Below, in pieces: positions 3,675 to 49,753 of a stretch of 64,000 nucleotides of DNA. Position 1 is the stretch's first letter; each line of letters begins with the position of its first letter. The notes under the pieces are model-generated. The model was not told the DNA's origin, did not search any database, and saw nothing but the letters and a program-made list of their open reading frames with translations. The DNA lies in contig PKTT01000062.1 of NCBI GenBank assembly GCA_002869015.1, forward strand, positions 26,257 to 90,256, written 5' to 3'. A program made the translations under genes and the position numbers. The DNA is from Deltaproteobacteria bacterium (lineage in GTDB: Bacteria; Desulfobacterota; Deferrisomatia; Deferrisomatales; BM512).

Positions 3675-5729
3675 CTAGGCCCTGGCAACGTTGCACATAA
3701 GGGACTTCATGTCAGGGTATCCTAGAATTTTCTCTCGACAATCGGTGTCGGTCAGGAGGTTTGCGTTTTTCTCTCCCTCCCAGCCGTGCGGCACGAAGAC
3801 GATACCCTCACTAACACGCTCATCGATCCGCACCTTCATCTTAACCTGACCGCGATTCGTTGAGATAAGGGCGGTATCTCCGGTGGAGAGTCCATATTTT
3901 GCCCCAGTCTCCACGCCAAGCTCCGCAAAGGGCTCGGGGCTCTCGGTCACCAGCGCGTCTACGGCGCGGAACTGGCTATGTGTATAGTAATAATCCCTGT
4001 GCCCTGTAGAGAGGATAAGGGGGTATTTCTCCAAAAACTCAGGCTTCGAGCTTCTTGGGCTCCGCTCGGGCTCTATGTACTCCGGCAAGGGGTTTGCGCC
4101 GACATCGGCGAGCGCCTGGCTGTAAATTTCGATCTTGCCGGAAGGGGTCTTGAAGTAACGCCCGTTATCGGGGACTTCATACGCCTTATGGTTGTAGTAA
4201 GTGCCCTCGGGGGTCTCTGCCAAGAGCCCCTCGAAGGTCAAACCGGAGGGGTCGAGCTCGAAGCGAATGAGGTCTTCCTCTGTCTCCCAGGGGAAGTCCG
4301 CGCCAATGCCGAGGCGTTTTGCAAGCTCTGTGAAAACCCACCACTCCGAGCGCGACTCACCGATGGGCTCAATGCACTTCTTCCTTAACATGAGGTACGG
4401 CAAGCAGTGGCAGACGTTGTAAGTATAGGCAAGGCCCCACTTTTCAAGGTGTGAACAAGCAGGAAGGACGTAATGCGCTTCCTTCGCCGTTTCAGTAAGG
4501 AACATATCGTGGACGACGAGGAGCTCAAGTCGACGGAACGCCTCGCGGAAGGCGTTTGAGTCCGCCATTGATACAAGGGGGTTGCCGCCGACGACCCAGA
4601 ATGCCTTGATCTTGTCCGGGATTGACTCCGGCACTTTGGTGATGACGCCATACGGGCTCTTCCTGCCCCAAACTTCAATGAATAGGGGGTAATCGTCCAT
4701 GCCGAGGGGCTCGCCCTCCACATTCATGCCGACATTGCCAAAGAATGGGCGCGGGCTTATGACCCAGCCCCCGGGAACGTTGATATTACCCGTAATTATC
4801 TGAAGCACCGAGAAAGCGCGGCTGTTTTGCGTGCCGCCAGCTGTCTGGTCCTGCGTGCATGTACCCTGATAAATGCTTGCGCCCTTGGTTGTGGCGAACA
4901 TGCGGGCAAGCTCACGAATTTTTTCAGCTGGCACCCAGGTAATCTCTTCCGCCCACTCAGGGGTGAAGGGGCCGACGCTTTTGGCAAGCTCATCGTAGCC
5001 AATGGTATGCTTTTCAACGAACTCATGGTCTACGAGATCCTCATTTATAATGACGTTGATCATCGCCATCGCCATCGCGCCGTCGGTGCCGGGCCTTATC
5101 TTGAGATACATCTCGGCGTTGTCCGCCAGCGGTATACGGCGGGGGTCAATTACGACCAGCTTGGAGCCCTTGGCAAGGTTCTCCTCCAGGCGGAGCTTTA
5201 AGGGGAAGTCGCTTGCATCGGGGTTATGGCCCCAGAGGATATAGAGCTTTGAGTCAAGCTCCTCTGTGGGGTACTTGCCGAAGGTGATCTGGCGCGTACG
5301 GATACGCATGCGATAACAGACGCTCTCGACGGAGAAGAAGTTGGGGGAACCGAAGGCCGCCTTAAAGCGCTGGGTAAGCCCGGCCATCTCAAGATTTTCA
5401 ACTCCTATGGAGCCGCTGAAAACGCCCAGGGTCTGGGGGCCGAAGTCAGCTTTTAGCTGGAGAAGCTTTTCGGCGATCTCATCGAGAGCCTGTTCCCACG
5501 AGATCGGCACCAGCTCCCCATCCACCCGCTTCAGCGGTGTTTTCAACCGCTTGGGGCTGTAAATATGTGGCAACATCGCCTCGCCCTTTGGGCAAAGCTC
5601 GCCATTATTGATTGGATGGGCCTCAAGCCCCTCAACTTTTACCGCTACGCCGTCCTCAACGGTTACTCTTGTCCCGCAGCTGTGGTAGCAGAGGGTGCAG
5701 TCGGTGAGGATCTCTTTGACGTTGGACAT
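3675..5729 (-). CDS. Molybdopterin (bis-MGD, DMSO-reductase superfamily) oxidoreductase, cytoplasmic, single subunit
   Basis: 684 aa. N-terminal 4Fe-4S motif DCTLCYHSCGT...CPKG. MopB-type core and a C-terminal MGD-binding barrel (GDTALISTNRGQVKMKVRIDERVSEGIVFVPHGW). No twin-arginine signal peptide. Confidence 0.85.
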   Translation of the reverse strand: MSNVKEILTDCTLCYHSCGTRVTVEDGVAVKVEGLEAHPINNGELCPKGEAMLPHIYSPKRLKTPLKRVDGELVPISWEQALDEIAEKLLQLKADFGPQTLGVFSGSIGVENLEMAGLTQRFKAAFGSPNFFSVESVCYRMRIRTRQITFGKYPTEELDSKLYILWGHNPDASDFPLKLRLEENLAKGSKLVVIDPRRIPLADNAEMYLKIRPGTDGAMAMAMINVIINEDLVDHEFVEKHTIGYDELAKSVGPFTPEWAEEITWVPAEKIRELARMFATTKGASIYQGTCTQDQTAGGTQNSRAFSVLQIITGNINVPGGWVISPRPFFGNVGMNVEGEPLGMDDYPLFIEVWGRKSPYGVITKVPESIPDKIKAFWVVGGNPLVSMADSNAFREAFRRLELLVVHDMFLTETAKEAHYVLPACSHLEKWGLAYTYNVCHCLPYLMLRKKCIEPIGESRSEWWVFTELAKRLGIGADFPWETEEDLIRFELDPSGLTFEGLLAETPEGTYYNHKAYEVPDNGRYFKTPSGKIEIYSQALADVGANPLPEYIEPERSPRSSKPEFLEKYPLILSTGHRDYYYTHSQFRAVDALVTESPEPFAELGVETGAKYGLSTGDTALISTNRGQVKMKVRIDERVSEGIVFVPHGWEGEKNANLLTDTDCREKILGYPDMKSLMCNVARA

Positions 5730-5752: not shown

Positions 5753-7381
5753 TTAATGAAGGCTTTCTTTAGCCGGGTTGTCTGTTGCTATCTCCACGAG
5801 GCCACCCTTACTGAAGCGGTTTATCTTTATTCCGCCGGGCATCCTCGGAAAATCATCAAGTATAAGCAATTCATCAGGCAGCTTGAATTTTGCGACCTTC
5901 CCCTTCATGAACTCACGTACCTCCGCCAGGGTCAACCCCTTATCCTTGTCGCGCAGCTTTGCGCAAACGCAGATTGACTCTCCTAGGACGGGGTTTGGGG
6001 TGCTCACTACGCTTACCTCTGCGATATTGCCCTGATCTACAAGGATAGCTTCAAGCTCGGAGGGAATAATCTTGAAACCGCCGCGGTTAATCCAATCCTT
6101 GAGGCGTCCCAGGATTTTGAAATTGCCGCTGGGTGACTTCACCCCCAGGTCTCCTGTATGGAGCCATCCATTAACCAACTGCTTTGTGGTCTCCTCAGGT
6201 TTATTCCAGTATCCCTTCATAACATGCCAGCCGGAGAGGATAATCTCGCCCTCCTCATTATCTCCCATCTCTTTTCCGGTTACGGGGTCAACTATCTTTA
6301 CGTCCGTACCGGGGATGGGCTTGCCAATGAAGTTCTCCCTAATCTCAAGGGGGGAACCATAGGGAAGTAGAATAGAGTTTCCGGGGCCGACCTCTGATGA
6401 GCCCAGGAAGGATGAGAGATAGACACCCATCTTCTCCTCTACATCTTTTATCAAACCTGCGGGAGCTATCTGACCCGCGATCATACCGGCGCGCAGGGTT
6501 GAGAGGTCATAATCCTCCCTATCCTTAGCGGCAAGCTCCATTAGGTAGTGCGCCGGAGCGCCCGGCTGAAGGGTTATCTTCTCACGCTCGATTAGCTTAA
6601 AAGCTTCGGTTGGGTTAAAGGCGTCCATCATTACCACGGTAGCGCCCAAGACAAGAGGCTGCACGAGCAAGGCGCCGCAGCCGTAGGAGTGGCCCATCGG
6701 CAGAAAACCAAGGAAGATATCTTCCTCGGTGGCGTCAACGCAAAGAGAGTAGGAGAGGCCGGCGCATAGCACCTGCGACTGTCCAATCATCGCGCCCTTG
6801 GGTTTACCCGTCGTACCGGAGGTATAGAGCAGCATCGAGAGATCGTCCGGCTTTACATCCTGCTCCTCATGGGGAACTGAAGCTGCATCTGATGATGCCA
6901 ATTCCCCGAATGACCTTACTCCATCCACACCACCAAAAGTGTCATCGGAGACTACTATCACATGCTCAAGGTCTGGCAGAGAACCTTTTAGGCTAAGGAG
7001 AGAGTCTTTATAATTGAATTTCTGCCAACTTTCGAATGCGAAAACGACCTTGGCCTTGGAGTCGCCCAGGATAAAGGAGGACTCCTTCTCCCTGTAGGCA
7101 GGGTTAATCCACGCCACGGCAACTCCCAGCTTCTGCAAAGCATAGAAGGCCAGGTTGAGCTCCAGCGAGTTAGGCATATAGATCGCCGCCATATCACCTT
7201 TTTTGAAACCGAGAGCATAAAGAGCGTTTGCGAGCTTGCCGGCCCGCTCCTTAAGGTCACTGAAGGTCATACGTTCATCACTCAGGATGAAAACTTCTTT
7301 TTCGGGGAGTCTTTCGGCGGTTTTTGTAACTTGGTCCCAGATGTTTAAGGACGCTAATGGTGCGTATGGTGTGTTATCCAT
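5753..7381 (-). CDS. AMP-forming acyl-CoA (aryl-CoA?) ligase
   Basis: 542 aa. AMP-binding signature LLYTSGTTGKPKGA, and later GWLHTGDLG and GRLKDWINRGGFKI motifs. Confidence 0.85.
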   Translation of the reverse strand: MDNTPYAPLASLNIWDQVTKTAERLPEKEVFILSDERMTFSDLKERAGKLANALYALGFKKGDMAAIYMPNSLELNLAFYALQKLGVAVAWINPAYREKESSFILGDSKAKVVFAFESWQKFNYKDSLLSLKGSLPDLEHVIVVSDDTFGGVDGVRSFGELASSDAASVPHEEQDVKPDDLSMLLYTSGTTGKPKGAMIGQSQVLCAGLSYSLCVDATEEDIFLGFLPMGHSYGCGALLVQPLVLGATVVMMDAFNPTEAFKLIEREKITLQPGAPAHYLMELAAKDREDYDLSTLRAGMIAGQIAPAGLIKDVEEKMGVYLSSFLGSSEVGPGNSILLPYGSPLEIRENFIGKPIPGTDVKIVDPVTGKEMGDNEEGEIILSGWHVMKGYWNKPEETTKQLVNGWLHTGDLGVKSPSGNFKILGRLKDWINRGGFKIIPSELEAILVDQGNIAEVSVVSTPNPVLGESICVCAKLRDKDKGLTLAEVREFMKGKVAKFKLPDELLILDDFPRMPGGIKINRFSKGGLVEIATDNPAKESLH

Positions 7382-8593: not shown

Positions 8594-9181
8594 TCAGCCG
8601 ACATCCTCAAAGGAGCGGGCAAGCACATAAGCTGCCTGCAGCGCCGAGGTTGGGCAGAGCGGGAAACATTCCTTACAATCCCAGCACTCTTTGGCTGCTA
8701 TCTCAGGGATAAAGCTTATCTCCCGGCTGGCACCCTGATCAACGAAGGTGACCGCATTTTTCCCCTTTATCTCATCGCAGTAGCGCACACAGAGTCCACA
8801 ATGAATACAAAAGGATGACTCTCTGCGATATTTCTCGGGGTCTGCTTTGTACTCCTTTGCCATCTCAGCAAGGTCATGGGAGTCGGGGGCATGTGCCAGC
8901 ATCAACTCCAATATTGTCTTTCTGATCTGGTCAATCTTCTCGGAGCGTGTGCGTACAACAATATCTGCTTCCACCGGGTAAACGCAGCCCACAACGTACT
9001 TGGTGCGGCCCCACGCCTCAACCTCCACCGTGCAGACGCGGCAACCGCCGTAAGGCTCCAGCTTGTCATGGTGACAAAGGGTGGGTATCTCAACCCCCAC
9101 TGTGCGGGCGGCTTCCAGGAGCGTCATGCCTTCTGTGGCTGCGACTTCTTTGCCATCTATCGTTAAGCGGACTTCACTCAT
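8594..9181 (-). CDS. bamI: Class II benzoyl-CoA reductase subunit BamI-like (NuoG N-terminal type 2Fe-2S/4Fe-4S protein)
   Basis: 195 aa. The N-terminus (RLTIDGKEVAATEGMTLLEAARTVGVEIPTLCHHDKLEPYGGCRVCTVEV) is typical of the NuoG/HydC N-terminus. Last gene of the bamB-I syntenic block. Confidence 0.75.
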   Translation of the reverse strand: MSEVRLTIDGKEVAATEGMTLLEAARTVGVEIPTLCHHDKLEPYGGCRVCTVEVEAWGRTKYVVGCVYPVEADIVVRTRSEKIDQIRKTILELMLAHAPDSHDLAEMAKEYKADPEKYRRESSFCIHCGLCVRYCDEIKGKNAVTFVDQGASREISFIPEIAAKECWDCKECFPLCPTSALQAAYVLARSFEDVG

Positions 9182-9217
9182 CTTAAATGCTTTCTCTTGT
9201 CAGGCCCTCTACAGGGC

Positions 9218-10903
9218 TCAGTTTGCCTCAATAGCGCAGTCGCCTGCGGGGCACTTCTTCTCATTGATATGCGCTTCGTACTCGGCTTTGAAATACCTTA
9301 GCGCGCTCCGCAATGGGTCCGGCGCCGTCTTCCCCAAGGAACAGAGAGAAGCCACAGACATGGTGTCTGCAATCTCCTCCAGCCGCTCTATGTCTCCCGG
9401 CCTGCCCTCGCCGCTGCAAATATCATTTAAGATATTCAGCATCTGGCGCATACCCTCTCGGCATGGTGTGCATTTGCCGCAGGACTCCTTGGTGAGGAAT
9501 TCGACGAAGTAGCGGGTAAGGGACACCATGCAAGTCTCATCGTCGATAACGAGCAGTGCGCCTGCGCCCATTGGCGCCCCAAGCTTACCAAGCTCATCGA
9601 AATCGAGGGGGGTGTCTATCATGTCGCCGGGTATAGAGCCGCCCATCGGCCCGCCAAAGTGGACCGCTTTTAACTTCTTACCGTTAGCGACGCCGCCGCC
9701 GATGGTCTCCACCACCGTTTTGAGCGATGTGCCCATCTCAACCTCGACAACGCCTATATTTCGCGCACTGCCTGAGAGGGAGATAAGCTTGCTCCCATTT
9801 GACTTCTCGGTGCCCATGCCGGCGAACCACTCTACGCCGTTATTTATTATGTAGGGTACATTGGCCCAGGTCTCTACGTTGTTTAAATTGCTGGGCATGT
9901 CGTTTACGCCGCTGACCGAGGTGCGCACATACTTGGGGCGCGGCTCCGGCATGTTTCCTTCCAGCGACCGCATCAGCGCGCTCGATTCTCCGGATACGAA
10001 GATGCCGACATCGAAATGCACCTCTACATCAAAGTCAAATCCAGAGCCGAGGATGTCATTGCCAAGCAGCCCCGCCTCACGCGCCTGTTCAAGGGCTCTA
10101 TTGAGGTTAGCCAGAAGCATCGGGCTGTCATGACGGGTATAGATGAAGCCCTTGGTTGCGCCTATAGCGCGAGCTCCGATAATCAGCCCCTCAAGAACGA
10201 GGTGTGGGTTGCCGGTGAAAAGTGCCCTGTCCATGAAAGCACCTGGTTCGCCCTCATGCCCGTTTACTATCACGTACTTCTCTTCGCCGGGGGCATTGCG
10301 TGTTGTCTCCCACTTCCGGCCCGCCGGGAAACCGCCACCCCCCCTGCCCCTCAAATTGGACTCTTTAACTTCATCCAATATAGCTTCAGGGGTCATGGCG
10401 AAGAGCGCCTTTGAAAGAGCAGCGTACCCACCTATAGCCAGATAGTCCTCAAGGCTCGTGGGGTCGATGCGTGCGTTGTCACCTATGAGAATTCTCGATT
10501 GCTCACGGTAGAAGGGAATTTTATCAAGGGCCTCTACGCGCTCACCCGTATCGGGGTCGGCGTAGAGAAGTCGCTCAATTGGTTTTTCGCCATTGGCAAC
10601 CTGAGAGACAATCTCGGCCGCGTCATCAGCGCCTACCTGGACGTAACATATATTTGAGGGGTTTACGATTACCACAGGCCCCATTTCACAAAAGCCGAGG
10701 CAGCCTGTTGCCATAACCCTTACCTTGCCTTCAAGCCCCTGCGCCTTCACCTCTTTTTCAAAGGCGTCAACTACCGCCCCGTTACCCAGAGCGTGGCAGT
10801 TGGGAGCAGCGCATATGGCAATTGAGGACGCTTTGGGGTCGCGAGCCTCTAAAATGGCTTTACGAATCTCTTCAAGTTTCTCGGGCGAGCCGATCCTTTG
10901 CAT
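9218..10903 (-). CDS. bamH: BamH-like NAD(P)H-binding flavoprotein (NuoF/HydB family)
   Basis: 561 aa. NuoF motifs (GRGGGGFPAGRKWE, ESCGKCTPCREG) plus an N-terminal thioredoxin-like Fe-S domain. Confidence 0.85.
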   Translation of the reverse strand: MQRIGSPEKLEEIRKAILEARDPKASSIAICAAPNCHALGNGAVVDAFEKEVKAQGLEGKVRVMATGCLGFCEMGPVVIVNPSNICYVQVGADDAAEIVSQVANGEKPIERLLYADPDTGERVEALDKIPFYREQSRILIGDNARIDPTSLEDYLAIGGYAALSKALFAMTPEAILDEVKESNLRGRGGGGFPAGRKWETTRNAPGEEKYVIVNGHEGEPGAFMDRALFTGNPHLVLEGLIIGARAIGATKGFIYTRHDSPMLLANLNRALEQAREAGLLGNDILGSGFDFDVEVHFDVGIFVSGESSALMRSLEGNMPEPRPKYVRTSVSGVNDMPSNLNNVETWANVPYIINNGVEWFAGMGTEKSNGSKLISLSGSARNIGVVEVEMGTSLKTVVETIGGGVANGKKLKAVHFGGPMGGSIPGDMIDTPLDFDELGKLGAPMGAGALLVIDDETCMVSLTRYFVEFLTKESCGKCTPCREGMRQMLNILNDICSGEGRPGDIERLEEIADTMSVASLCSLGKTAPDPLRSALRYFKAEYEAHINEKKCPAGDCAIEAN

Positions 10904-10912
10904 ATTCTGTCC

Positions 10913-11365
10913 TTACTTGACGTTTTTCAGCACGTCTTCGGTTTTACTCGGAGCAAGCCGTCCATGATATTGGCCGTCCACCATCATCACGGGACCAAGC
11001 GAGCAAGCGCCCATACAGTTGACCGCAGTTAAACTGAATTTTGATTCGCTGTCTGTCTCTCCGGGGCGAATACCGGCAACCTCATACACAGTGTCGAGCA
11101 CCTTCTGCGCGCCGCGAAGGTGGCAGGAAGTTCCGGTGCAGACATGGAGCTCATGGTCACCCTTTGGCACAAGGCTGAAAGTCTTATAAAAAGCGGCTAT
11201 CTGTTGAACTTTGGCCAATGGAACCCCCAGCCGCTCGCTGACCCTCTCCAATGCCTCCTTCGGCAGCCAGCGGTTGTGATGCTGGATGTCCATGAGGATC
11301 ATAATGAGCGCCCTTGGCTTGGCCTCAAATTTATCAATGATCTGGTCGATCTTATCCTGAGTCAT
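10913..11365 (-). CDS. bamG: BamG-like 2Fe-2S protein (NuoE/HoxE family)
   Basis: 150 aa. NuoE pattern HELHVCTGTSCHLRGA...CMGACSLGPVMMVDG. Confidence 0.85.
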   Translation of the reverse strand: MTQDKIDQIIDKFEAKPRALIMILMDIQHHNRWLPKEALERVSERLGVPLAKVQQIAAFYKTFSLVPKGDHELHVCTGTSCHLRGAQKVLDTVYEVAGIRPGETDSESKFSLTAVNCMGACSLGPVMMVDGQYHGRLAPSKTEDVLKNVK

Positions 11366-11382
11366 ATCCTGAACCTCGTCGC

Positions 11383-12159
11383 CTAAACCGCTTTGGCCAA
11401 GCGGAACCGCTTATCGTCTTCGTTGTAACGGACAAGCCCGTGTTTAGCCGAGTTACCTATGTGCCGGGCAACCTCTGAAGTGCTCATACCCAAAGCTTCG
11501 GCCAACTCGGCTGCGTTGCTGGCTGATTTAGCCAACTGAGTGAGGATGAGGCTTACAGCAAGCTTGTCGCCAACCAAATCCTTGAGCAGCCGCTCAACGT
11601 CAGGAGAGTTGAAATACTCGGCATACTTCTCCGCCGTATCGAAGCGCACTCTAAGCCGTTCGCGCTCAACGAGGCGCACATTGGGCAGAAGCCTGTTTAA
11701 AGCCTCGAAACGCTCGGTGAGCTGTTCGGGTGTTATTCCTTCACCCTCCCCGAGGGGGCCAAGCTCTTTAATCTGCGAGCTGAAATCATTTACGGTCTGA
11801 ACAAAGCGGAGTCCCTCACCCGCTGACATCTGCGCTATACGCAAACGCCTTGGGTCAATTCCAACGAAACCTAGCAGCTTTTTGCAAAGCTCGACCATGT
11901 GAGCCGCATGGTAATTGCCGCCGGTGTCGTAATGGCAATCCCCGAGATGGCAACCGCCAATCAGGACGCCGTCCTTGCCGTTTGTAAATGCCCGTATCAC
12001 ATGAGAGAGGTCGACTCTCCCGGTACACATGATGCGGATAAGCTTTATATCTGTTGCATATTGGAGTCTGGACACGCCAGCCAGGTCAGCAGACCCGTAC
12101 GCTCACCAATTGCAGACAAAGCCCAGAATGTCGGGCCGGTGTGAGAAGCTGGTTCCCAT
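11383..12159 (-). CDS. bamF: BamF-like MvhD-type protein, predicted selenoprotein (in-frame TGA at 12103-12105) with a C-terminal wHTH-like extension
   Basis: The ORF track starts at GTG 12075. The same frame continues upstream through one TGA to ATG 12159 (AAGGAG RBS at 12166-12171): MGTSFSHRPDILGFVCNW-TGA-AYGSADLAGVSRLQY.... This aligns with the MvhD N-terminal motif FCCNWC(T/S)YGGADxAG, with the TGA at the second Cys. Confidence 0.75.
12064..12096 (-). promoter_or_regulatory. Candidate SECIS hairpin downstream of the bamF UGA
   Basis: The mRNA from 7 nt after the UGA reads GGGUCUG-CUGACCUGGCUGGCGUGUC-CAGACUC. It forms a 7-bp lower stem (one G-U pair) with further GAC/GUC pairing possible. 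Hand-folded only. Confidence 0.35.
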
Positions 12160-12216
12160 TTTTATCTCCTTAAAAATTAAACTGCACTTACCTGAAACTG
12201 TTACCGGGATGCGCTA

Positions 12217-15200
12217 CTACGCAGCATCTATCTGCGAGGCTATCTCGCACTCGGTATAATGCTTTAGATCTACTGCTCCCGTGGGGCACTTAGTGTTGCA
12301 AAGGCCATCGCCCTTACAGAGGACCGGATTTACCCTCGCCTTCTTGCCTGCCGGGGTATCGTGGAACTCAATGGCGTTGTAGCTGCAAGCTGTTATACAC
12401 GCGCCGCATGAGATGCAGTCTGACTCTGCGACCTGGGCTACCGCGCCGGAGGCGCTCACCGCGTCTTTCGCCAAAACGTTTACCGCACGTCCTGCAGCGC
12501 CGAAGGCCTGGCTTATAGCTTCTGGAATTCGCTTCGGGTAATGGGCGCTGCCACAAAGGAAGACTCCATCGGCGGCAAAATCCACCGGGCGAAGCTTTAC
12601 GTGAGCCTCCTGGAAAAAACCGTCTGGATTGAGCGACACCTTGAACTGGCGCGCAGCCTCCTGGCTTCCCTCTGAGGGGACCACCGCCGCAGCCAGCGTA
12701 ACCAGGTCAACATCAATTTCGAGCATCTTCCCAAGGATCGGGTCCGGCACCCTCAGCTTAAGCGCCGAGCCGCCCTCCTCAACTTGAGGCTTTGCATCGG
12801 GCTCATAGCGGATGAATTTGACGTCCATACCGGCGGCTTCGCGGTACGCCTGCTCCGCCATGCCATAGGTGCGCATATCCCTGTAAATGACATAGACCTC
12901 TCTCTTGGGGTCGGATTTTTTGAGGGCTATTGCGTTTTTAACGGACTGGGTGCAGCAGAGGCGGCTACAGTAATTGCGCTCCTCATTACGACATCCTACG
13001 CACTGGATCATAGCCACGCTCTTAGCGCTATCAACCAGCTCGGAGCCCCCGTCCATCGCAGCTTCCAGCTCAAGGGAAGTTAGCACCCTCTCGCTCTCTC
13101 CGTACAGGTACTCGGTAGGCTTGTGCTCATCTGCGCCTGTAGCGAGAACCGCTACGCCGTGGGCTATGTTTCTAGTCCTGCTGCCTGTACGTACAGTCGT
13201 ATTGAAGTCACCGATGTAGCCTGTGACCTGGGTTATTCTGGAGTCAGTCCATACATGTATTAATGGGTTTTTATAGACCGCATTGATTAGACCATCTATG
13301 TGGGACTGAACATCCATCCCCTCAAGCGTTGTGGGCACCCTTCGCGCCATACCGCCAAGGTCCTTATCCTTTTCAACCAGATAAACCTCAAACCCCTGGC
13401 TCGCCATGCTTAGCGCAGTGGTCATGCCTGAAAGGCCACCGCCCACTACCAGCCCGGCTTTGTTCACAGGCAGCTCATACTCAGGCAATGGCTCCAAAAG
13501 CGCGGCGCGAGAGACAGACATGCGCACTATCTCTTTGGCTTTGGCAGTTGCGGCCTCTTTCTCTCTCGAATGGACCCAGGAGCAATGCTCGCGTATGTTC
13601 GCCATCTCATAGAAGTAGGGGTTTATTCCGCCCTCCCGGCAGGTATCGCGGAAGAGGGGCTCGTGGGTACGAGGAGTGCATGCCGCGACGACGACTCTGT
13701 TAAGGTCCTTATCTCGAATCTGGTCGGAGATATCCTTTGCATTCTCCGTCGAACAGGCAAAGAGGCTCTCCTGCGCATGGACGACATTGCCAAGCGTGGA
13801 TGCATACTCTACGACCGAGGGCACATCGACCACGCGGCCTATGTTCGCGCCGCAATGGCATACGAACACGCCAATCTTTAGCTCCTCGCCTGAGGTATCC
13901 TTCTCTTCAGGATATACTCGCTCACGGGAGAGTTTGCCTCTGCGGTAGGAGAGCAACTGGCTGCAAAGAGCGTCCGCTCCGCTGGCGGCTACAACGGACT
14001 CCGGTATATCGAGAGGGCCGGTGAAAGCGCCGCTGACGAAGATGCCCGGGCGGCTTGTTTCAATGGGGTTCTCCGGCTTGGTCTTGCAAAAACCATATTC
14101 GTTGAGCTCTACTCCAAAGGTATCCGCCAGCTCTTTGACGTTCTCGGTGGGGTTTATACCAACCGAGAGCACTACCAGATCAAACTCCGCCTCTTTGACC
14201 CCATCATCTGGAGTTGAGTAGCGGATGGTAAGATTTTTTGTTTCAGGATCTTCGCCCGCCATTGAAACGTAGCTGCGAATGAACTCGACGTCGGAGAGGT
14301 TCTCTGCGCGCTGGTAGTAGCGCTCGAAGTCCTTGCCGAAGGCGCGGATATCATTGTGAAAGACAGTGGCTTTGATTTCGGCGTCGTGGTCTTTTGCCAA
14401 GATCACCTGCTTTTGAGTGTAAGCACAGCAAACCGCCGAGCAGTAGCTGTTGCCTCCGGGGCGAACTTGGCGGGAGCCAACGCACTGAATCCAACCTATT
14501 TTCTCGGGGTGCTTTCCATCTGAAGGGCGGCGGATGTGTCCGTCATAGGGGCCAGTGGAGCAGAGTATACGCTCAAAGTCGAGGCTCGTTACCACGTTCT
14601 CCATGGTTCCATAGCCATAATCGCCTCGAAGCGAGGGGTCGAACACCTCATACCCCGGCGATAGCAGCACTGCTCCCACGCTAAGCTGCTCCAGCTTGAC
14701 GCTCTGGTGGAGGTCAATGGCGTTGTGTTTGCAAACTCCGCTGCAAATTGTGCACTTCTCCCCCTGGAGATACAGGCATTTATCAGGATCGACGTAAGTG
14801 ACCAGCGGAACAGCCTGGGAGAAGTATATGTGAACAGCCTTGTTTTCAGAGAGGTTCTGGTTGTAGGGGTCCGGCACCTTCGCGGGGCAGTACTCCACGC
14901 AGACACCGCAGCCGGTGCACTTGTTTTCGATTATGTAGCGTGGCTTTCTCGCCAAGGTGATTTTGAAATCACCGGCGTGGCCGCTCACATCGCGCACCTC
15001 TGTGTAGGTCAGAATCTCTATATTTGGGTGACGGCTGCACTCAATGAACTTCGGCGACTCAATGCACATCGAACAGTCATTGGTGGGGAAGGTCTTGTCC
15101 AACTGCGCCATCTTGCCGCCGATGGAGGGGGCCTTGTCCACCAGCACCACCCTGAACCCCGCGTCACCGAGGTCAAGGGCAGCCTGTATGCCGCTGATAC

Positions 15201-15282
15201 CCCCACCGACTATCAACACGTCGGCGTGGTCGCTCTCAAGAGAGTGTTCGAGCCGTAGGTCGTCTAACGGTAAATTTTCCAC
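12217..15282 (-). CDS. bamE: BamE-like HdrA-type FAD/Fe-S oxidoreductase (large fused form)
   Basis: 1021 aa. GTG start with AAGGAAG RBS. HdrA signatures (VLIVGGGISGIQAALDL, KTFPTNDCSMCI), several CxxCxxCxxxCP ferredoxin motifs and a second FAD-binding domain (VVGGGLSGMTTAL). No in-frame stop. Confidence 0.85.
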   Translation of the reverse strand: MENLPLDDLRLEHSLESDHADVLIVGGGISGIQAALDLGDAGFRVVLVDKAPSIGGKMAQLDKTFPTNDCSMCIESPKFIECSRHPNIEILTYTEVRDVSGHAGDFKITLARKPRYIIENKCTGCGVCVEYCPAKVPDPYNQNLSENKAVHIYFSQAVPLVTYVDPDKCLYLQGEKCTICSGVCKHNAIDLHQSVKLEQLSVGAVLLSPGYEVFDPSLRGDYGYGTMENVVTSLDFERILCSTGPYDGHIRRPSDGKHPEKIGWIQCVGSRQVRPGGNSYCSAVCCAYTQKQVILAKDHDAEIKATVFHNDIRAFGKDFERYYQRAENLSDVEFIRSYVSMAGEDPETKNLTIRYSTPDDGVKEAEFDLVVLSVGINPTENVKELADTFGVELNEYGFCKTKPENPIETSRPGIFVSGAFTGPLDIPESVVAASGADALCSQLLSYRRGKLSRERVYPEEKDTSGEELKIGVFVCHCGANIGRVVDVPSVVEYASTLGNVVHAQESLFACSTENAKDISDQIRDKDLNRVVVAACTPRTHEPLFRDTCREGGINPYFYEMANIREHCSWVHSREKEAATAKAKEIVRMSVSRAALLEPLPEYELPVNKAGLVVGGGLSGMTTALSMASQGFEVYLVEKDKDLGGMARRVPTTLEGMDVQSHIDGLINAVYKNPLIHVWTDSRITQVTGYIGDFNTTVRTGSRTRNIAHGVAVLATGADEHKPTEYLYGESERVLTSLELEAAMDGGSELVDSAKSVAMIQCVGCRNEERNYCSRLCCTQSVKNAIALKKSDPKREVYVIYRDMRTYGMAEQAYREAAGMDVKFIRYEPDAKPQVEEGGSALKLRVPDPILGKMLEIDVDLVTLAAAVVPSEGSQEAARQFKVSLNPDGFFQEAHVKLRPVDFAADGVFLCGSAHYPKRIPEAISQAFGAAGRAVNVLAKDAVSASGAVAQVAESDCISCGACITACSYNAIEFHDTPAGKKARVNPVLCKGDGLCNTKCPTGAVDLKHYTECEIASQIDAA

Positions 15283-15343
15283 GTCTATTCTTCCTTTAGC
15301 GGGACGAATCCCTAAGGGTTACTGCTAAAACGCATAGCCTCAT

Positions 15344-16507
15344 CTATAGAGACTCGTACAACAGCTCCATTACATCTTTTATCTGGAGACTTTCGCTATC
15401 CTCAAGCCCCAGCCGGCTATCTTCAAAGTTTGCTATGCAATAAGGGCAGGCGGTGGCGAGCACCGCAGCCCCAGCCTCTGCGGCCTGATTGACTCTGATC
15501 GTAGAGAAGCGCTCCTCCTTGGGGGTATCAACCCAAATGCGCCCTCCGCCCCCTCCGCAGCAGAGGCTCTTCTCCCTTGAATCCGGGAGCTCGACCAAAT
15601 CAACTCCGGGGATGCTTTTCAAAAGGTCGCGCGGCTCCTCGTAGACCCCATTGTGGCGGCCAAGGTAGCAGGGGTCGTGGTAGGCAACAACAGCGGGCAT
15701 CTCCTTTGTCGGGGTGATACGCCCCTCTGCTATAAGCTCTGAGATATACTGGGTTACGTGCACTACCTCGAAGTTGACCATAAATTCAGGGTATTCATTT
15801 TTAAAGGTGTGGTAGCAGTGCGGTGAATTGACCAACACCTTTTTGACCCCATGTTCGATGAAGTTTTTGATGTTCTCTTTGGCAAGCCTGACGAAGGTCT
15901 CCTCATCGCCGGCTTTTCTGATTGACTCACCACAGCAATTTTCCTTGGTCCCGAGAATGCCAAAGGATACGCCGGCCTTGTCCAGCAACTTGGTAGTTGC
16001 GGCAGCCACCTTCCTGAGTCGCCTGTCATAACTTAGGTAGCAGCCGGAGAAGTAGAGCACCTCCATATCATCGGTAAATGGCTTTACCGGCAAATCCTTC
16101 GCCCAATCGGCGCGCTTATCACGTGGCTCTCCCAGCGGGTTGCCCTCTATTGACAGATTGCCGCTGGCAGCTCTCAGCGGTTTGACCTTTTCAGGGAAGA
16201 CATCGTATTCAGTGGCAATTCGCCTGAGCGCTACACCGGAGTCTATCTGGCGAACATCTCTAGGGCACTGAGTAGGGCAAGTGCCGCAGGTGGTGCAACG
16301 CCAAATCTCCTCATTTTCGATTTCAGTCAAACCGAAGACAGCCTGGCGTACTATCTTTCTCATGCTGAAGGGGCGCACCCTGTTCCAGGGGCATACTGTG
16401 TCGCATAGCCCGCACTGGTAGCAGTATTTAAAGGCGTCGCCGCCTTTTTCCTTAATTATTTCAACAATGTCTTCAAAGGGCGCAACTGTTTCCACGGCAA
16501 TCCCCAA
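15344..16507 (-). CDS. bamD: BamD-like HdrD-type Fe-S/CCG-domain protein
   Basis: 387 aa. CYQCGLCDTVCPW and CTTCGTCPTQCPR motifs plus two CCG motifs (ENCCGES, SLCCGGGGG). TTG start, uncertain by a few codons. Confidence 0.8.
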   Translation of the reverse strand: MGIAVETVAPFEDIVEIIKEKGGDAFKYCYQCGLCDTVCPWNRVRPFSMRKIVRQAVFGLTEIENEEIWRCTTCGTCPTQCPRDVRQIDSGVALRRIATEYDVFPEKVKPLRAASGNLSIEGNPLGEPRDKRADWAKDLPVKPFTDDMEVLYFSGCYLSYDRRLRKVAAATTKLLDKAGVSFGILGTKENCCGESIRKAGDEETFVRLAKENIKNFIEHGVKKVLVNSPHCYHTFKNEYPEFMVNFEVVHVTQYISELIAEGRITPTKEMPAVVAYHDPCYLGRHNGVYEEPRDLLKSIPGVDLVELPDSREKSLCCGGGGGRIWVDTPKEERFSTIRVNQAAEAGAAVLATACPYCIANFEDSRLGLEDSESLQIKDVMELLYESL

Positions 16508-16522
16508 TCGTTTCTTAAGTGG

Positions 16523-17074
16523 TTAAGCGGATTTCTTGGCCATGGTGGCGACCGATTTCACCACTTCTTCAAGCCCGTATCGTTTAACCAGATATTCGAG
16601 CCCAATCTCTTTTTCTCCGCGTTCTGGTGTTATGGAGTCCTCGGCCTCAACCTGGTATTCGTGGTAGGTAAGCGCGCCCGGGTGGCAGACCTGTACGCAC
16701 ATCGGCTCACCGATGTCCAGGCTCTCGCACATATCACACTTTAGAGGAAGGCCTGAATCCGGCTCCGTAAAACGGGAGCGTGACGGGCACGAGGCGGGGC
16801 AGAGAAGACAAGACTCATACTCTTTGCCATCTATTGTGTATTTGTTTCGCCCAGCACATTCAGCCTCGGCGTAATCTCCCGCCCTGATGGGTATATAAGC
16901 GTCGGTGGACTCATCAATGACCACGGTGATACGGGAGCGGGCCGGGTTAACGCTTGTATAGGGAGGCATTGCGTGGGCTGCGGAGCAGCTCATCTCGCAG
17001 CTGAGACACCCATTACATTTATTTACGTCGACACGGATCTCTTTGATCGTCTTCATCTTCTTATTTTCTTTCAT
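16523..17074 (-). CDS. bamC: BamC-like 4Fe-4S cluster protein
   Basis: 183 aa. CNGCLSCEMSCSAAH and further Cys clusters. GGAGA RBS. Lies immediately downstream of the AOR-type subunit. Confidence 0.8.
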   Translation of the reverse strand: MKENKKMKTIKEIRVDVNKCNGCLSCEMSCSAAHAMPPYTSVNPARSRITVVIDESTDAYIPIRAGDYAEAECAGRNKYTIDGKEYESCLLCPASCPSRSRFTEPDSGLPLKCDMCESLDIGEPMCVQVCHPGALTYHEYQVEAEDSITPERGEKEIGLEYLVKRYGLEEVVKSVATMAKKSA

Positions 17075-17132
17075 TTAACTTTCTCCATAACCACCGGCGC
17101 TTCTTTGGCGCGCAGCGTCAGGGTGCGAACGA

Positions 17133-19049
17133 TTATTCAGCGGCTGAGTAAATACCACGTTTTTCAAAGTCCTCGCGCACATCGCCAAGAGCCAGCTCTT
17201 CCAGCGTCTCGGGCGTCGGGATACCATCCTGCGTCCAGCCTTTGAATTCGTAATAGGCGCTAAGGAGGCTCTGCTCAAACTCCTCATCTCGAACCGCCCA
17301 ATGGTCTTCCGGCGGACGCTCATCCGCCCTCCTCATGCCGCGCCTGACGTTTATTGCGCGAACGAGATTTCTGTTGCGGCGAAAAACCTTCCACAGGTCT
17401 TCCTTACTGAGGTCGAGGCCGGCCGCCATACGGATAAGGTCTGGTATATTGTGGATGTTGTATTGGGTCTTGCCGCCGAACTGGCCCCTGAATGACGATA
17501 CAAAGGCGCACAGGCCAATGGCGTCGTCGATGTAGTGCATCGCCTCATTCCAATCTACGATGTCACACACTGCGCCTGAAGGCATCTCGTTACGCCTCTC
17601 CCACTCCATGAAATACTTCTTGAATTTCTCATCGGGAACCGCCTCCCAGGCATCGACGAACGCCTGGCGCTCCTCTATGGTAGGTAGCGGATCCTGCGGG
17701 AAGGAGCCCTCGATCTGGGTGATGTTCATCTTCTCGCCGGTGGCGATCATTAAAAAGAACATCGGGTTGACCTTGCCGAGCTTGATCGGCACCTGCTCGA
17801 ATTTCTTCGTGGTGTTGTGGTCAAACTTCTCAGCGCCGTTGCCAATCTGGCGCGCGGCCCAGTAAACGCCGTTCGCCAACTTGTCGCCTATACCTCTGCG
17901 ATTGACTATCATATCGAGGATATAGAAGAAGCGGCCGCGTATATCTTCGGGCATGCCGGGGAAATCATCCAGGGTTAGAATGCCCTCCTCAAGGAGCTCA
18001 AGGGCGAAGGCAATTACCTGCGGAGTTGAGTAGGAGTCGAGTCCATACTCCTGCGCGACGCCGAGAATTTCGTAGGAAAAATCAAGCTCCTGGAAGGAAG
18101 CCATGTGGTAGGTGTCTTTACCAAAGCACTTGTAACTAAAGCGCTTTCGGCCGGGCCATGATATTACGTTGTGGCATTTTTTGGGACAATTATAGCAGCC
18201 TGTCTGGCGGTCCATGTGGTCATACTTGATATCCGTCCAGCGCTGCTGAAGCTCCTCGCTCCAATAATTCTTCTGGCGGACGCGAGCGTTACCCCAGGAG
18301 AAGTTGTCATGGTGGAAGCCGTCATCCTCATCAACCGCCATCCAGTCGCCAGCGCCGGGGTTATCAGCGAGGTCTTTCCTTAAATCCTTACATATATGAA
18401 AGAGCTTCTCCGGCTCCGCCATCTGAAGGTCTTTGGTGCCGCGTACAACTATTGCCTTTACCCGCTTGTCGCCCATCACCGGGCCAACTCCACGAGAAGC
18501 GCTGCAATGGCTGTGCTCGATAGAGGCTGTGTAGACGCGATTCTCACCGGCAAGGCCGATAGCAGCAATTTGAAGTTTGTCGTCGCCCAAGTCTTTTTTC
18601 AGGAAATCCTGGACCTCAGTGGTGCCCATACCCGCCAAATGAGCAGCGTCTCTTATTTCGACGTTGTCATTGTTTATGTAGATGTATACGAGCTTAGGGG
18701 CTTTGCCGCTTAATATTATCTTATCGTACCCGGCGTGCTTCATCTCCACGCCGAAGTAGCCGCCCATCATGGAGTGTGCGTGCAGATTGGTCTGCGGCGA
18801 GAAGGTATTCACAATTGTCCGGTTAGCGCCGGGGACGAAGGTGCCGTTAAGGAGGCCGCTGCTGAAGATAAGCAGGTTCTCCTCGGAGAAGGGCTCTACT
18901 TCAGGCCCAACACGGTCCCAGAGTATTTTGTCCGCCGTACCCTGCCCGCCAAGGTAAAGCTTTGTCAGCTCAGGGTCGGTTGCAACTCTTTCGATATTGC
19001 CGCGCGTGAGGTCGATTTCAAGGTTAAACCCTGTTTCTGCGTACCGCAT
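17133..19049 (-). CDS. bamB: BamB-like tungsten-pterin active-site subunit of class II benzoyl-CoA reductase (AOR family)
   Basis: 638 aa. The N-terminus MRYAETGFNLEIDLTRGNIERVATDPELTKLYLGGQGTADKILWDRVGPEVEPFSEENLLIF closely follows the Geobacter metallireducens BamB N-terminus as I recall it. AOR-family domains throughout. Confidence 0.9.
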   Translation of the reverse strand: MRYAETGFNLEIDLTRGNIERVATDPELTKLYLGGQGTADKILWDRVGPEVEPFSEENLLIFSSGLLNGTFVPGANRTIVNTFSPQTNLHAHSMMGGYFGVEMKHAGYDKIILSGKAPKLVYIYINNDNVEIRDAAHLAGMGTTEVQDFLKKDLGDDKLQIAAIGLAGENRVYTASIEHSHCSASRGVGPVMGDKRVKAIVVRGTKDLQMAEPEKLFHICKDLRKDLADNPGAGDWMAVDEDDGFHHDNFSWGNARVRQKNYWSEELQQRWTDIKYDHMDRQTGCYNCPKKCHNVISWPGRKRFSYKCFGKDTYHMASFQELDFSYEILGVAQEYGLDSYSTPQVIAFALELLEEGILTLDDFPGMPEDIRGRFFYILDMIVNRRGIGDKLANGVYWAARQIGNGAEKFDHNTTKKFEQVPIKLGKVNPMFFLMIATGEKMNITQIEGSFPQDPLPTIEERQAFVDAWEAVPDEKFKKYFMEWERRNEMPSGAVCDIVDWNEAMHYIDDAIGLCAFVSSFRGQFGGKTQYNIHNIPDLIRMAAGLDLSKEDLWKVFRRNRNLVRAINVRRGMRRADERPPEDHWAVRDEEFEQSLLSAYYEFKGWTQDGIPTPETLEELALGDVREDFEKRGIYSAAE

Positions 19050-21206: not shown

Positions 21207-22499
21207 ATGAAGAGGACTGCCTTAACGCTGACTCTAGCCCTCATTGCTTTGAATGCAGCTATCGCGTCGGATGACACATATCTTGAAGGTGACCTGAACT
21301 CAGTCATCGAGTACGCCCAAGAGCATAGTCCCGCGATAATTGCAGCTAAAGGCGAGTGGCTGGCGACGCTTGAGTCATACCGCGTGACCACAGCATATCC
21401 AGACCCCGAGATGATGGTCACCTGGTTTCCAGAGCCTATAGAGACAAGGCTTGGGCCTCAGGAGTGGAACGCCACCATATCTCAGCAGATACCCTACCCC
21501 GGTGAGCTTGAAAGCGCAGGCGAGATAGTCGAGGCAAAGAGCGATGTCGCCAAAGCCGGTTTTGAGAAAGTTGCACGCGGCGTTACCACAAACGTCACCA
21601 AATCGTTACACGAGCTTTGGTATATCAGGGGCGCTGAAGAGGTTGTCCGTGAGCAGCTAAAACTCGTTAAACACATACTCCTCATAGCCACAACAACCTA
21701 TGGAGAGGGAGATTCAACCCTCTTGGAGCTAACTAAAGTCAAATCTCAGGAGGCGCAGCTCGGCTATGACCTTACCCTCCTTGAGGAGCTGGAAATTGCA
21801 GAGACTGCTACGCTCAACTCATTGATTGGGCGGGATGCCAACCTCCCCATAGGAGAGACAGTCATACCGCCCATCCCAGAAAATCTGCCGCCGGTGGAAA
21901 AGCTGGTCGATGCAGCAAAGGAGCACCGCGACGAGATAGCTATGGCCCGTGGGGCTGTTGCGGTGGCCGATGCTTCATTTAAAAAGGCCAACTTGGAGAA
22001 CCGCCCTGATTTCAAGGTCGGACTCTTTTACGCAGGGATAGGAGAACCCGACGTCCCCTCCCCTCCGCCAGACGCAGGACGGGATGCTTACGGCATACAG
22101 TTCGGAATAAAGATCCCAATATGGGGTAGCAAGCGTGACGGCCGGGTAGCTTCCGCCACGGCAAAACGTGACGCTGCGTCGGCGCAACTTGACAATGTCA
22201 AAAACTCCACAGCTGCCGCTGTCTACTCAAAATACTTCAACCTCCTCAACTCAAAGAGGCTCGTCAATCTTTATTCGGAAGAGCTTATACCGCAGGGACG
22301 CGCCGCCCTTGAGAACGCTGAAAATTGGCTGAACAACGGCGAGGGGTCACTGGGTGATCTTTTGGAGGCACGGGCGGCTTATCACAATTTTCAACTAAGC
22401 ATGCTGCGCGCCCGCGCAGATTTCGGAAAGAACCGCGCCGACATGGAGAGGCTTACCGGAGTCAGCATCGCAGCAGCGGGAGGTGGTGAGAATGAGTAA
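21207..22499 (+). CDS. TolC/CusC-family outer-membrane efflux protein
   Basis: 430 aa. Signal peptide and the coiled-coil/beta-barrel OEP repeat pattern. First structural gene of the RND operon. Confidence 0.8.
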   Translation: MKRTALTLTLALIALNAAIASDDTYLEGDLNSVIEYAQEHSPAIIAAKGEWLATLESYRVTTAYPDPEMMVTWFPEPIETRLGPQEWNATISQQIPYPGELESAGEIVEAKSDVAKAGFEKVARGVTTNVTKSLHELWYIRGAEEVVREQLKLVKHILLIATTTYGEGDSTLLELTKVKSQEAQLGYDLTLLEELEIAETATLNSLIGRDANLPIGETVIPPIPENLPPVEKLVDAAKEHRDEIAMARGAVAVADASFKKANLENRPDFKVGLFYAGIGEPDVPSPPPDAGRDAYGIQFGIKIPIWGSKRDGRVASATAKRDAASAQLDNVKNSTAAAVYSKYFNLLNSKRLVNLYSEELIPQGRAALENAENWLNNGEGSLGDLLEARAAYHNFQLSMLRARADFGKNRADMERLTGVSIAAAGGGENE

Positions 22500-24006
22500 A
22501 CATTTATTATCCACCATCTTAACGTTACTGGTTTCAACCCATACTTTTGCGGGTTACGAGGAGCTCAAGGCGGATTACGATTCTTTCAGCATTACGCCGC
22601 CCACCCATTTGGAAGAAGGCCTAAAGGAGTTCAGCAGCTCCTCCTGGGGTGATGACAGCACTAGAGGCCTAATAGAGGGACTCAAGGCTGAAAGCATAAA
22701 AGCGCTGGACGATCAAAGCATGGCGCCCAAGTTCGAAGAAAACCTTCTGAAGCGAAGTGAAGCGGAGAGCTTCTTAGCTAAGGGCGGCACAGTTGATGAA
22801 CTCAGGGCCCTTGTTGCATCGAGGAACAGATCCGTAAGGAGCCAAAGAGAGCGGGCGCTAGCGGCCATTGAGTCCATAAGCCAGGTAGCGCTCCTTGATG
22901 AAATTCTAAGCTCCTACTCTGTCCTTACAGAGTCTTTGATGAATAAGGTCGGCCCGATGAAGGGTAGCTCTCCGGTCGAGATGACATACCCGTCACCCTC
23001 AGTTACTTCACTTAAGGTGAGCGTTGCTAAGAACGAAGCCTCCATAGAGAGGGAAAATTACTTCGCGACGTTGAGAGACAAACTCTTCGAGCTTGAAGCT
23101 CTTCATAATGAGCTTACCCTCGTGCGCGAGGATAAAAGGCTGAAGGAGGAGCTCCTTGAGCTCCTTGGCTCTGTTGAAAGCGTCGCTACAGCTCTTTATG
23201 AGACCGGAAAAAGCGACTTTCAGGATGTCATCTCCGTAAGGGTAAAGAGGCTCTCACTCGGGGAGATGGTGAGATCATTGGAGGAACGGGATTTAGCCCT
23301 TACCACCTCAATTCTACAGCTTGTGGACCTTACCGATAGCAGCGTCGCTATAAATACACCCGATAAAGGGGCACTCTCAGCGTCCCCTGACAGCTGGAAA
23401 AATCTCCTCCCTGACGCCCTTATCAGCCGTCAGGAACTACGCCTTATACGCGCGAAGATAGCGAAGATGGAGGCGATGATTGAGATGGGCGAGAGCATGC
23501 TTACCCCATCAATCGACCATGGCTTCTCACGCTTTCAGGACAGGCCGCTCGCACAGGTTGGAAGCGGTGCGATGGCTGAGACCTTCCCGACAAAAGAAAA
23601 CGCCGCGATGGGTTACGCATCACCCAAAAAGCCATGGTACGGCGCTTCCGATTCATACCTGACGGAACTGCGCATAAAGCTCTCTGCGGCTAAAAGCTCC
23701 CTGGCGGAGGCGGAGAGCAAGACTGCGTCAATGCTACATGAAAAGTGGAGCGTTCTGGATGCCGCTAAAAGGGACTTTACACTCTATGACAATGAGGTTG
23801 TAGCACTAAGGCGTAGCGCGCTGGACGCAGGTGGCGCGGCTTACGAGTCGGGCTCACTGCCATTTCCAAAGCTAATAGCGCTTTACGACGCATACCTCGA
23901 CGCCGCTCTTTCACGGGCGAAGAGCTACTCGAAATATGAAACAACCCTAGCGGCGATTGAAAAAATTGTCGGCGCGCCCATATCGGCGATCTCAAGGGAG
24001 AGATAG
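22492..24006 (+). CDS. Second, divergent TolC-like outer-membrane efflux protein
   Basis: ORF 22483..24006. Start moved to ATG 22492 (GGAGG RBS, 8-nt overlap with the upstream gene). Signal peptide MSKHLLSTILTLLVSTHTFAG. Long helical OEP-like repeats. Family call is tentative. Confidence 0.5.
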   Translation: MSKHLLSTILTLLVSTHTFAGYEELKADYDSFSITPPTHLEEGLKEFSSSSWGDDSTRGLIEGLKAESIKALDDQSMAPKFEENLLKRSEAESFLAKGGTVDELRALVASRNRSVRSQRERALAAIESISQVALLDEILSSYSVLTESLMNKVGPMKGSSPVEMTYPSPSVTSLKVSVAKNEASIERENYFATLRDKLFELEALHNELTLVREDKRLKEELLELLGSVESVATALYETGKSDFQDVISVRVKRLSLGEMVRSLEERDLALTTSILQLVDLTDSSVAINTPDKGALSASPDSWKNLLPDALISRQELRLIRAKIAKMEAMIEMGESMLTPSIDHGFSRFQDRPLAQVGSGAMAETFPTKENAAMGYASPKKPWYGASDSYLTELRIKLSAAKSSLAEAESKTASMLHEKWSVLDAAKRDFTLYDNEVVALRRSALDAGGAAYESGSLPFPKLIALYDAYLDAALSRAKSYSKYETTLAAIEKIVGAPISAISRER

Positions 24007-24008
24007 AG

Positions 24009-25508: not shown

Positions 25509-25532
25509 CCGTCTCAAGAGAGGAAACTCACC

Positions 25533-42240: not shown

Positions 42241-42488
42241 TCTTCGGGTATGGGATTAATCCACTCAATTATCTCTATAGACCACGGCTTGCCAACCCAC
42301 TGCCCGCGACCTAAACGGGGCCAGAGGCGATCGCCATACTTGTCCGGGTCGGAGGATGCGCGGGCCTTAACAACCTTGCAGCAGTACTTGGCCTTGGTTG
42401 AAGCCAGATCGCGAATTATCATGTCCTGCGCCTGGTCCTGAGTGAATTCATTCAAATCGGTTAAGATAAAAGTGTCGTATTCAGCCAT
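42231..42488 (-). CDS. ppcD: Small (about 10 kDa) subunit, PpcD-like by size and position
   Basis: 85 aa with no recognisable domain. Occupies the position of the 10-kDa delta subunit of phenylphosphate carboxylase between UbiD-like genes. Confidence 0.55.
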   Translation of the reverse strand: MAEYDTFILTDLNEFTQDQAQDMIIRDLASTKAKYCCKVVKARASSDPDKYGDRLWPRLGRGQWVGKPWSIEIIEWINPIPEEWR

Positions 42489-49750: not shown

Positions 49751-49753
49751 TTC

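Follow-up and report, generated by a model that had tools for sequence, protein, structure and literature searches.

Gene content of the locus

The window analyzed here, a 64,000-nucleotide stretch of contig PKTT01000062.1 from a deltaproteobacterium, carries eight adjacent genes on the minus strand whose order and Pfam domains match a complete bamBCDEFGHI cluster (Table 1). The domains found were of the aldehyde:ferredoxin oxidoreductase (AOR) family in bamB, ferredoxin in bamC, HdrC/CCG in bamD, and a double HdrA in bamE, with NuoE, NuoF, and 2Fe-2S plus 4Fe-4S domains in bamG, bamH, and bamI. The bamB product aligned over its full length with the benzoyl-CoA reductase of Geobacter metallireducens (chain 4z3w_A, E = 8e-240), as against only 1e-65 for AOR itself, and BamE matched HdrA chains with E = 1e-191. 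The gene considered in this report lies between bamE and bamG in this cluster, with a true BamB nearby, and judged by its sequence and context it is the bamF of a class II benzoyl-CoA reductase cluster. The gene order B-C-D-E-F-G-H-I is the same as in G. metallireducens.

Table 1. Positions in the window of the bam genes and of the features of bamF
Feature	Position	Strand	Remarks
bamBCDEFGHI	8594..19049	-	cluster; Pfam domains of all eight ORFs
bamB	17133..19049	-	
bamC	16523..17074	-	
bamD	15344..16507	-	
bamE	12217..15282	-	fused double HdrA, 1021 aa; CxxC is C70/C73
bamF, full CDS	11383..12159	-	258 codons including UGA codon 19, plus stop
bamG	10913..11365	-	
bamH	9218..10903	-	
bamI	8594..9181	-	
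Ribosome binding site AAGGAG	12166..12171	-	6 nt 5' of ATG 12159; AAGGAG/GGAGG equivalents in the closest relatives, L084-L086
In-frame TGA, predicted Sec19	12103..12105	-	aligns with Cys of CNWC; TGA/Cys alternation
MvhD/FlpD domain, residues 11-134	11758..12129	-	carries Cys16, Sec19 (predicted), Cys45, Cys70, Cys75
C-terminal winged-helix-like segment, residues 203-251	11407..11553	-	MarR_2, E 2e-5, 25.1 bits
Candidate SECIS core hairpin CUGG-CGUGU-CCAG	12068..12080	-	invariant in 58 aligned TGA orthologues
Possible stem extension	12066..12082	-	G-C pair outside a G.A mismatch
Longer hairpin of the first-pass annotation	12064..12096	-	competing fold, mutually exclusive with the core; confined to the window's subclade

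Other genes in the window were also assigned from their domains. Just downstream of bamI, an acyl-CoA ligase gene (5753-7381) adjoins an uninterrupted ORF on the minus strand (3675-5729) for a 684-aa molybdopterin oxidoreductase resembling the formate dehydrogenase alpha subunit, which scored 363 bits with TIGR01591 (cut-off 666). An anaerobic phenol/hydroxybenzoate module lies at 40876-55449, also on the minus strand. It includes four UbiD-family carboxylase/decarboxylase genes (40876-42240, 42512-43960, 44545-45957, and 54148-55449), phenylphosphate-synthase-like proteins with PPDK_N and PEP-utilizer domains (48620-49750 and 49754-51610), and a Phenol_MetA_deg outer-membrane protein (52723-54078), and is accompanied by a phenylacetate-CoA-ligase-like gene (38902-40236). 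A heavy-metal RND efflux system is encoded on the plus strand at 21207-29042; its components are an AcrB-family pump (1169 aa), two OEP proteins, and a CusB/HlyD protein that also has a heavy-metal-binding domain. The right end of the window cuts through the gene of a very large repeat protein of the cadherin/Big_9 type (58750-63975 and beyond), which has 2383 aa in the ENA contig (locus L087, 11429-18580). The window corresponds, in reversed orientation, to ENA ERZ794998 NODE_144 (92,181 bp), and it runs about 2 kb past the end of the JGI contig 3300007102 Ga0102541_1078781 (82,117 bp).

Reading frame and start of bamF

In the mechanical ORF list, bamF begins at a GTG and occupies 11383-12075, and the interval between this start and the end of bamE at 12217 (12076-12216) is unassigned. 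The JGI and ENA gene calls for the contig likewise begin bamF at GTG 12075, which opens a 230-aa ORF and corresponds to Val29 of the extended protein. A first-pass annotation of this DNA had pointed out the late start and the unexplained interval, and had followed the frame back through a single TGA to ATG 12159, with AAGGAG 6 nt upstream of it. The ORF list, the sequence, and its translation agree with that description. On the minus strand the ribosome binding site is followed by the spacer ATAAAA and by ATG (12159-12157). The 18 sense codons MGTSFSHRPDILGFVCNW then lead to the TGA, after which the frame continues with AYGSADLAGVSRLQY... until the stop at 11385-11383, giving a product of 258 aa with one internal TGA, at codon 19. 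No further in-frame start was seen between the two TAG stops that follow bamE and ATG 12159. There is no Shine-Dalgarno sequence ahead of GTG 12075; the AAGGAG stands ahead of ATG 12159.

Truncated forms of this gene are not limited to the present contig. About ten of the best 120 database relatives (212-231 aa in length) are cut short at the UGA, and these proteins begin at M45, at M or V29, or at L25. In each case this is the next start codon past the TGA, which suggests that the short entries are artefacts of gene calling. A start at Val29 would cost BamF the first 18 positions of the FlpD profile, including Cys16 and residue 19. We find support for a bamF gene that runs from 12159 to 11383 with Sec at residue 19, and for the truncated ORF being such an artefact.

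The BamF protein and its relatives

The extended BamF matched the Pfam FlpD family (PF02662) with E = 4.5e-48, residues 11-134 aligning with profile positions 1-123 of 123; the full FlpD/MvhD domain is covered only when the extension is included. Residues C45, C70, and C75 were invariant in the BamF alignment, and the window protein has C16 and U19 as well. The peptide across residue 19 is MGTSFSHRPDILGFVCNW-U-AYGSADLAGVSR. The MvhD chains 5odc_D, 7bkb_F, and 8rvu_F aligned from residue 6-8 (E about 1e-41), with their (C)CNWC over the CNW-U of BamF, and full-length database relatives of 253-256 aa contained ...ILGF(V/L)CNWC(C/S/A)Y(A/G)GADL.... The first-pass annotation had placed the TGA at the second Cys of a CxxC motif and had proposed aligning the extended product with MvhD and BamF sequences. 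In that alignment the homologues have the CNWC segment, and the TGA falls over its second Cys both in the solved MvhD chains and in the Cys-type BamFs.

At 258 aa, BamF is considerably longer than MvhD (about 140 aa), as a result of a C-terminal extension that is typical of BamF and absent from MvhD. The winged-helix-like segment in this extension scored just under the Pfam cut-off for MarR_2 (25.1 vs 27 bits). BamF has been described as an MvhD adaptor that exceeds MvhD in length by more than 100 aa and has a wHTH motif (bioRxiv 10.64898/2026.04.10.717634). No BamF-specific model was found in NCBIfam, where the best matches were the MvhD-like tail of HdrA2 and VhuD (NF045873; 126 vs 215 bits), both below their cut-offs. 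The best named relatives in our genome scan were Acidobacteriota MAGs with about 60% identity.

The G. metallireducens BamF (Gmet_2083) has the same architecture, an MvhD domain followed by an extension of about 120 aa with a winged-helix-like segment, and it also has a UGA at residue 19 in a CxxU motif. Geobacter-type loci also share with the window a BamE whose CxxC motif contains Cys. The Geobacter-type BamFs are nevertheless only about 50-54% identical to the window BamF; they have CTW-U where the window has CNW-U, and the loop of the putative SECIS is GGA GUU in them, as opposed to the minor variant GGC GUG in the window. The MvhD and VhuD proteins (5odc_D, 7bkb_F, 8rvu_F, and NF045873) belong to the same fold family and share the (C)CNWC...C...CxxxxC cysteines. 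Like BamF as we propose it, MvhD of the methanogen Mvh/Hdr complex is a [2Fe-2S] adaptor that passes electrons to HdrA-type flavoproteins. The MvhD chains in the PDB differ in having about 130-140 aa, a Cys at the residue 19 position, and no C-terminal extension. Their partners are also different, being hydrogenase or formate dehydrogenase, whereas those of BamF are the BamGHI NADH/ferredoxin module.

The in-frame TGA as a probable selenocysteine codon

We scanned genomes, one per species, and obtained 80 BamF loci with 77 orthologous sites at the aligned codon. This codon is TGA at 59 of the 77 sites and TGT or TGC at the other 18. According to the titles of their records, the TGA loci come from Geobacter/Geomonas, Desulfosporosinus, Sporotomaculum, and Syntrophus, and from MAGs labelled Acidobacteriota, Chloroflexota, Actinomycetota, and Planctomycetota, among others. 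The arrangement of ribosome binding site, ATG, 18 codons, and TGA recurs in the three closest metagenomic relatives (83, 82, and 68% identity). Compared with one of these relatives (L085), the window has five synonymous differences and one conservative one over the 18 codons that precede the TGA. The predominance of synonymous differences suggests that this segment is under selection at the protein level and is translated. The ENA and JGI assemblies, possibly built from the same reads, do not differ in the 5' region of bamF.

TGA is the stop codon of 7 of the 32 main ORFs in the window, which argues for the standard code and leaves no room for a general reassignment of TGA. We also considered other TGA-interrupted ORFs in the window. 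These were short chance extensions or overlaps with known genes, and only bamF was convincing.

The residues around the codon also differ between the two forms of the protein. Among loci L001-L080, the Sec-type BamFs have U-(A/G)-Y-(G/A/S)-(A/S)-A-D at residues 19-24, and the Cys-type proteins have C-(C/S)-Y-(A/G)-G-A-D; the Cys forms usually continue with another Cys, which the Sec forms never have there. One locus, from a Thermoleophilia MAG (L055), has two BamF-like genes at 2811 and 3750, about 940 nt apart, and both of them contain the TGA and the same SECIS core that is described below.

A preprint reports from cryo-EM that the same residue of the G. metallireducens BamF is selenocysteine, Sec19, located near the [2Fe-2S] cluster and equivalent to the MvhD cysteine that forms a regulatory disulfide (bioRxiv 10.64898/2026.04.10.717634). 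UGA codons with SECIS elements have also been reported in BamE, an MvhD, and HdrA of Desulfococcus multivorans (PMC5109826). The statement in the first-pass annotation that Sec-containing homologues are known, including the Geobacter bam cluster, is borne out by Sec19 of the G. metallireducens BamF and by the D. multivorans BamE and MvhD. Its description of the site as part of a cluster-binding motif goes too far, since the preprint puts the residue close to the [2Fe-2S] cluster and does not state that it is a ligand. By analogy with that structure, we would call residue 19 a redox-active residue beside the cluster rather than a demonstrated ligand. From the codon alternation and the homology, the in-frame TGA of the window is almost certainly the selenocysteine codon of BamF. 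That BamF is a selenoprotein with Sec19, and that class II benzoyl-CoA reductases are tungsten/selenium enzymes, is already published, and we claim no new biology here.

A conserved hairpin downstream of the TGA

The 58 aligned TGA orthologues share an invariant 13-nt hairpin, CUGG-NGUNU-CCAG, at +26 to +38 from the U of the UGA. The corresponding motif, CTGGNGTNTCCAG, was present at this position in 59 of 59 TGA genes and in 0 of 18 Cys genes (Fisher p = 6e-18, uncorrected for shared ancestry), and it occurs once in the window vs 0.05 expected. Most sequences have AGUUU as the loop; the window shares CGUGU with nine others. GTG 12073-12075, the start codon of the truncated calls, is a Val codon in this apical loop, and its GU is the GU of the loop (12075-12074).

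The constraint on the element is visible in its codons. All 59 TGA genes encode Ala as xCT, Ser as TCC, and Arg as AGR across the element. Arg is CGN in 17 of the 18 Cys genes, and their Ala (GCC/GCT/GCG) and Ser (TCC/TCT/TCG) codons are mixed. The motif is missing from the Cys genes mainly because of the use of CGN rather than AGR for Arg. The codons of the window (GCT, TCC, and AGA) are the TGA-type signature. Third-position entropy falls to 0-0.8 bits in the TGA genes only, and in these it does so nowhere but across the element. Since the core stem never varies, it offers no compensatory changes, and the support for the core comes from the invariance of synonymous sites and from the contrast with the Cys genes. 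RNAalifold kept only the 4-bp core hairpin (-4.5 kcal/mol).

The loop of the hairpin begins 26 nt past the UGA. In bacterial SECIS elements the distance from the UGA to the loop is 16-37 nt (PMC10778597), so the geometry fits a bacterial SECIS. Judging from the sequence comparisons, the hairpin at 12080-12068 is likely the SECIS core. The SECIS of E. coli fdhF is a minihelix located 11 nt after its UGA, with the loop GGUC, in which G23 and U24 contact SelB. The window element is similar in being an in-ORF hairpin just past the UGA with GU at loop positions 2-3. It differs in that its conserved stem is short, 4 bp and a single G-C pair past a mismatch, and in the position of the GU, which is at +31/+32 in the window and at +23/+24 in fdhF. 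By analogy, the loop GU may parallel G23/U24 of fdhF, a parallel that we take as a resemblance only.

Beyond the core, pair 33-49 (12082/12066) is G-C in 53 of 58 sequences. The outer pair 31-51 shows an exchange of CG and UA (17 and 14 sequences) and is unpaired in 26 sequences, including the window. We also tried an extended helix of eight pairs and rejected it; its support was modest, the observed value being reached by 7 of 500 shuffles, and its outer pairs are absent in the window.

The first-pass annotation had suggested a longer hairpin, 12096-12064, as the SECIS. This hairpin exists, is the minimum free energy fold in the window, and spans 12080-12068. Its longer stem is not conserved, although the inner 13 nt are. 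Across the 58 TGA orthologues, only 57.8% of the cells are paired, four of its base pairs cannot form in 41-52 sequences, and its pairing was no better than that of shuffled or slid controls. Single-sequence folding of 12040-12110, 12064-12096, and 12060-12090 gave results no better than shuffled sequence; the folding check proposed for 12040-12110 came out at z = +0.36, and 12064-12096 gave z = -0.58. Neither a permissive Rfam scan of 11950-12250 nor one of the whole window at gathering thresholds matched any family.

BamE and the pattern of selenocysteine use

The CxxC motif of the window BamE reads FPTNDC70-S-M-C73, and Cys73 is encoded by TGC (15066-15064). At this position, the second Cys of TNDCxxC, 20 of 64 relatives have TGA (loci L006, L014, L016, L026, L034, L040-L042, L047, L049-L051, L062, L067, L069, L070, L072, L074, L077, and L080). 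It is the one position where relatives use TGA, and the first-pass annotation was correct that this BamE uses Cys. The TGA-containing BamE genes have a downstream hairpin of their own, CUGGUC-GAGGUC-GGCCGG, with compensatory changes such as U.G, U-A, and C-G at one pair. A SECIS-like hairpin is absent downstream of Cys73 in the window. BamE matches that carry TGA, listed at 65-67%, include records labelled Chloroflexia and delta proteobacterium. The D. multivorans BamE/HdrA (dmul_C24500/10) belongs to the same complex and has Sec for the second Cys of CxxC. Unlike these Sec-containing BamE/HdrA proteins, the window BamE has neither the TGA nor the hairpin.

The use of selenocysteine in the two subunits is nested. 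BamF and BamE are Sec/Sec at 20 loci, Sec/Cys at 27, and Cys/Cys at 12, and no locus is Cys/Sec. We consider it possible, though rather doubtful, that Sec19 of BamF and the CxxC/U of BamE form one selenol/thiol relay for which the BamF Sec is a prerequisite, and that the Sec-type cluster spread horizontally together with its SECIS. This reading is based on the 13-nt core being identical in 59 TGA loci of many labelled phyla and on the nested use of Sec. If it were true, the window would represent an intermediate state, with Sec in BamF and Cys in BamE.

Proposed decoding of the UGA codon and alternative explanations

It is very probable that BamF is translated from ATG 12159 and that UGA19 is recoded to Sec by means of a SECIS hairpin within the coding sequence. 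The sequence anatomy, homology, gene context, alternation of TGA and Cys, and an RNA constraint specific to the TGA genes were read from the data; we infer the insertion of Sec itself, the exact fold of the SECIS, and the redox role. In the proposed mechanism, SelB would be recruited by the core CUGG-CGUGU-CCAG, whose apical loop would present the GU, and SelB with Sec-tRNA(Sec) would recode codon 19. The product would be a 258-aa selenoprotein with C16-x-x-U19 beside the [2Fe-2S] cluster, serving as the MvhD-like adaptor subunit of the class II (tungsten/selenium, BamBCDEFGHI) benzoyl-CoA reductase. By analogy with the Geobacter enzyme, BamF would take electrons from BamGHI and pass them on to the bifurcating FAD of BamE, and selenol/thiol chemistry with the CxxC pair of BamE may be involved in this relay.

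The UGA could instead be a genuine stop, with a shorter BamF made from GTG 12075 and the 18 upstream codons either untranslated or encoding a leader peptide. The 230-aa ORF is real, and the JGI and ENA callers annotated it in this way. However, such a protein would lack the start of its FlpD domain with Cys16 and residue 19, its GTG has no Shine-Dalgarno sequence and sits in the loop of the conserved hairpin, and the 18 upstream codons are conserved as protein. The scatter of starts among the short database entries, which begin at whatever start codon follows the TGA, also points to an artefact, and we regard a functional short BamF as highly improbable. Slightly less credible still is an error of sequencing or assembly, or an inactivating mutation of TGC or TGT to TGA that would make bamF a pseudogene. 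Only one base separates TGA from these Cys codons, and the contig is metagenomic. Against this explanation, 59 independent genomes and three close metagenomic relatives share this TGA, the two assemblies give the same sequence, and the rest of the gene and of the cluster is intact. The window also has the TGA-type synonymous signature, which the Cys-type genes do not.

The UGA might also be read through without selenocysteine, by a near-cognate Cys-tRNA or Trp-tRNA, if the organism has no Sec machinery or has lost it. No tRNA was found in the window with ARAGORN, Pfam scans of 30 large window ORFs gave no SelA, SelB, or SelD, and no sel genes were present among the neighboring proteins in the contig flanks read (about 8 kb to the left of the window and about 4 kb to the right). 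Because such genes are usually located elsewhere in the genome, the lack of selA, selB, selD, or tRNA-Sec near bamF neither supports nor refutes Sec decoding. A SelB-type hairpin maintained at synonymous sites, on the other hand, makes sense only if SelB is used, and a lineage without Sec would be expected to fix TGC or TGT, as the 18 Cys-type loci have. Readthrough of this kind thus appears very unlikely, and Sec decoding from ATG 12159 is the reading that we adopt.

Implications

The practical value of this work is in annotation. Both public gene calls for the contig are cut short at the UGA, and the CxxU redox motif is missing from the short calls. BamF is a key subunit of the enzyme by which strict anaerobes dearomatize benzoyl-CoA. 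With the signature of a TGA plus CTGGNGTNTCCAG, bamF calls in metagenomes can be repaired by a simple rule. The analysis also yielded two modest by-products, the universal SECIS core and the nested pattern of Sec in BamF and BamE. For this uncultured organism, the Sec codon implies a need for selenium, beside tungsten, in the degradation of aromatic compounds.
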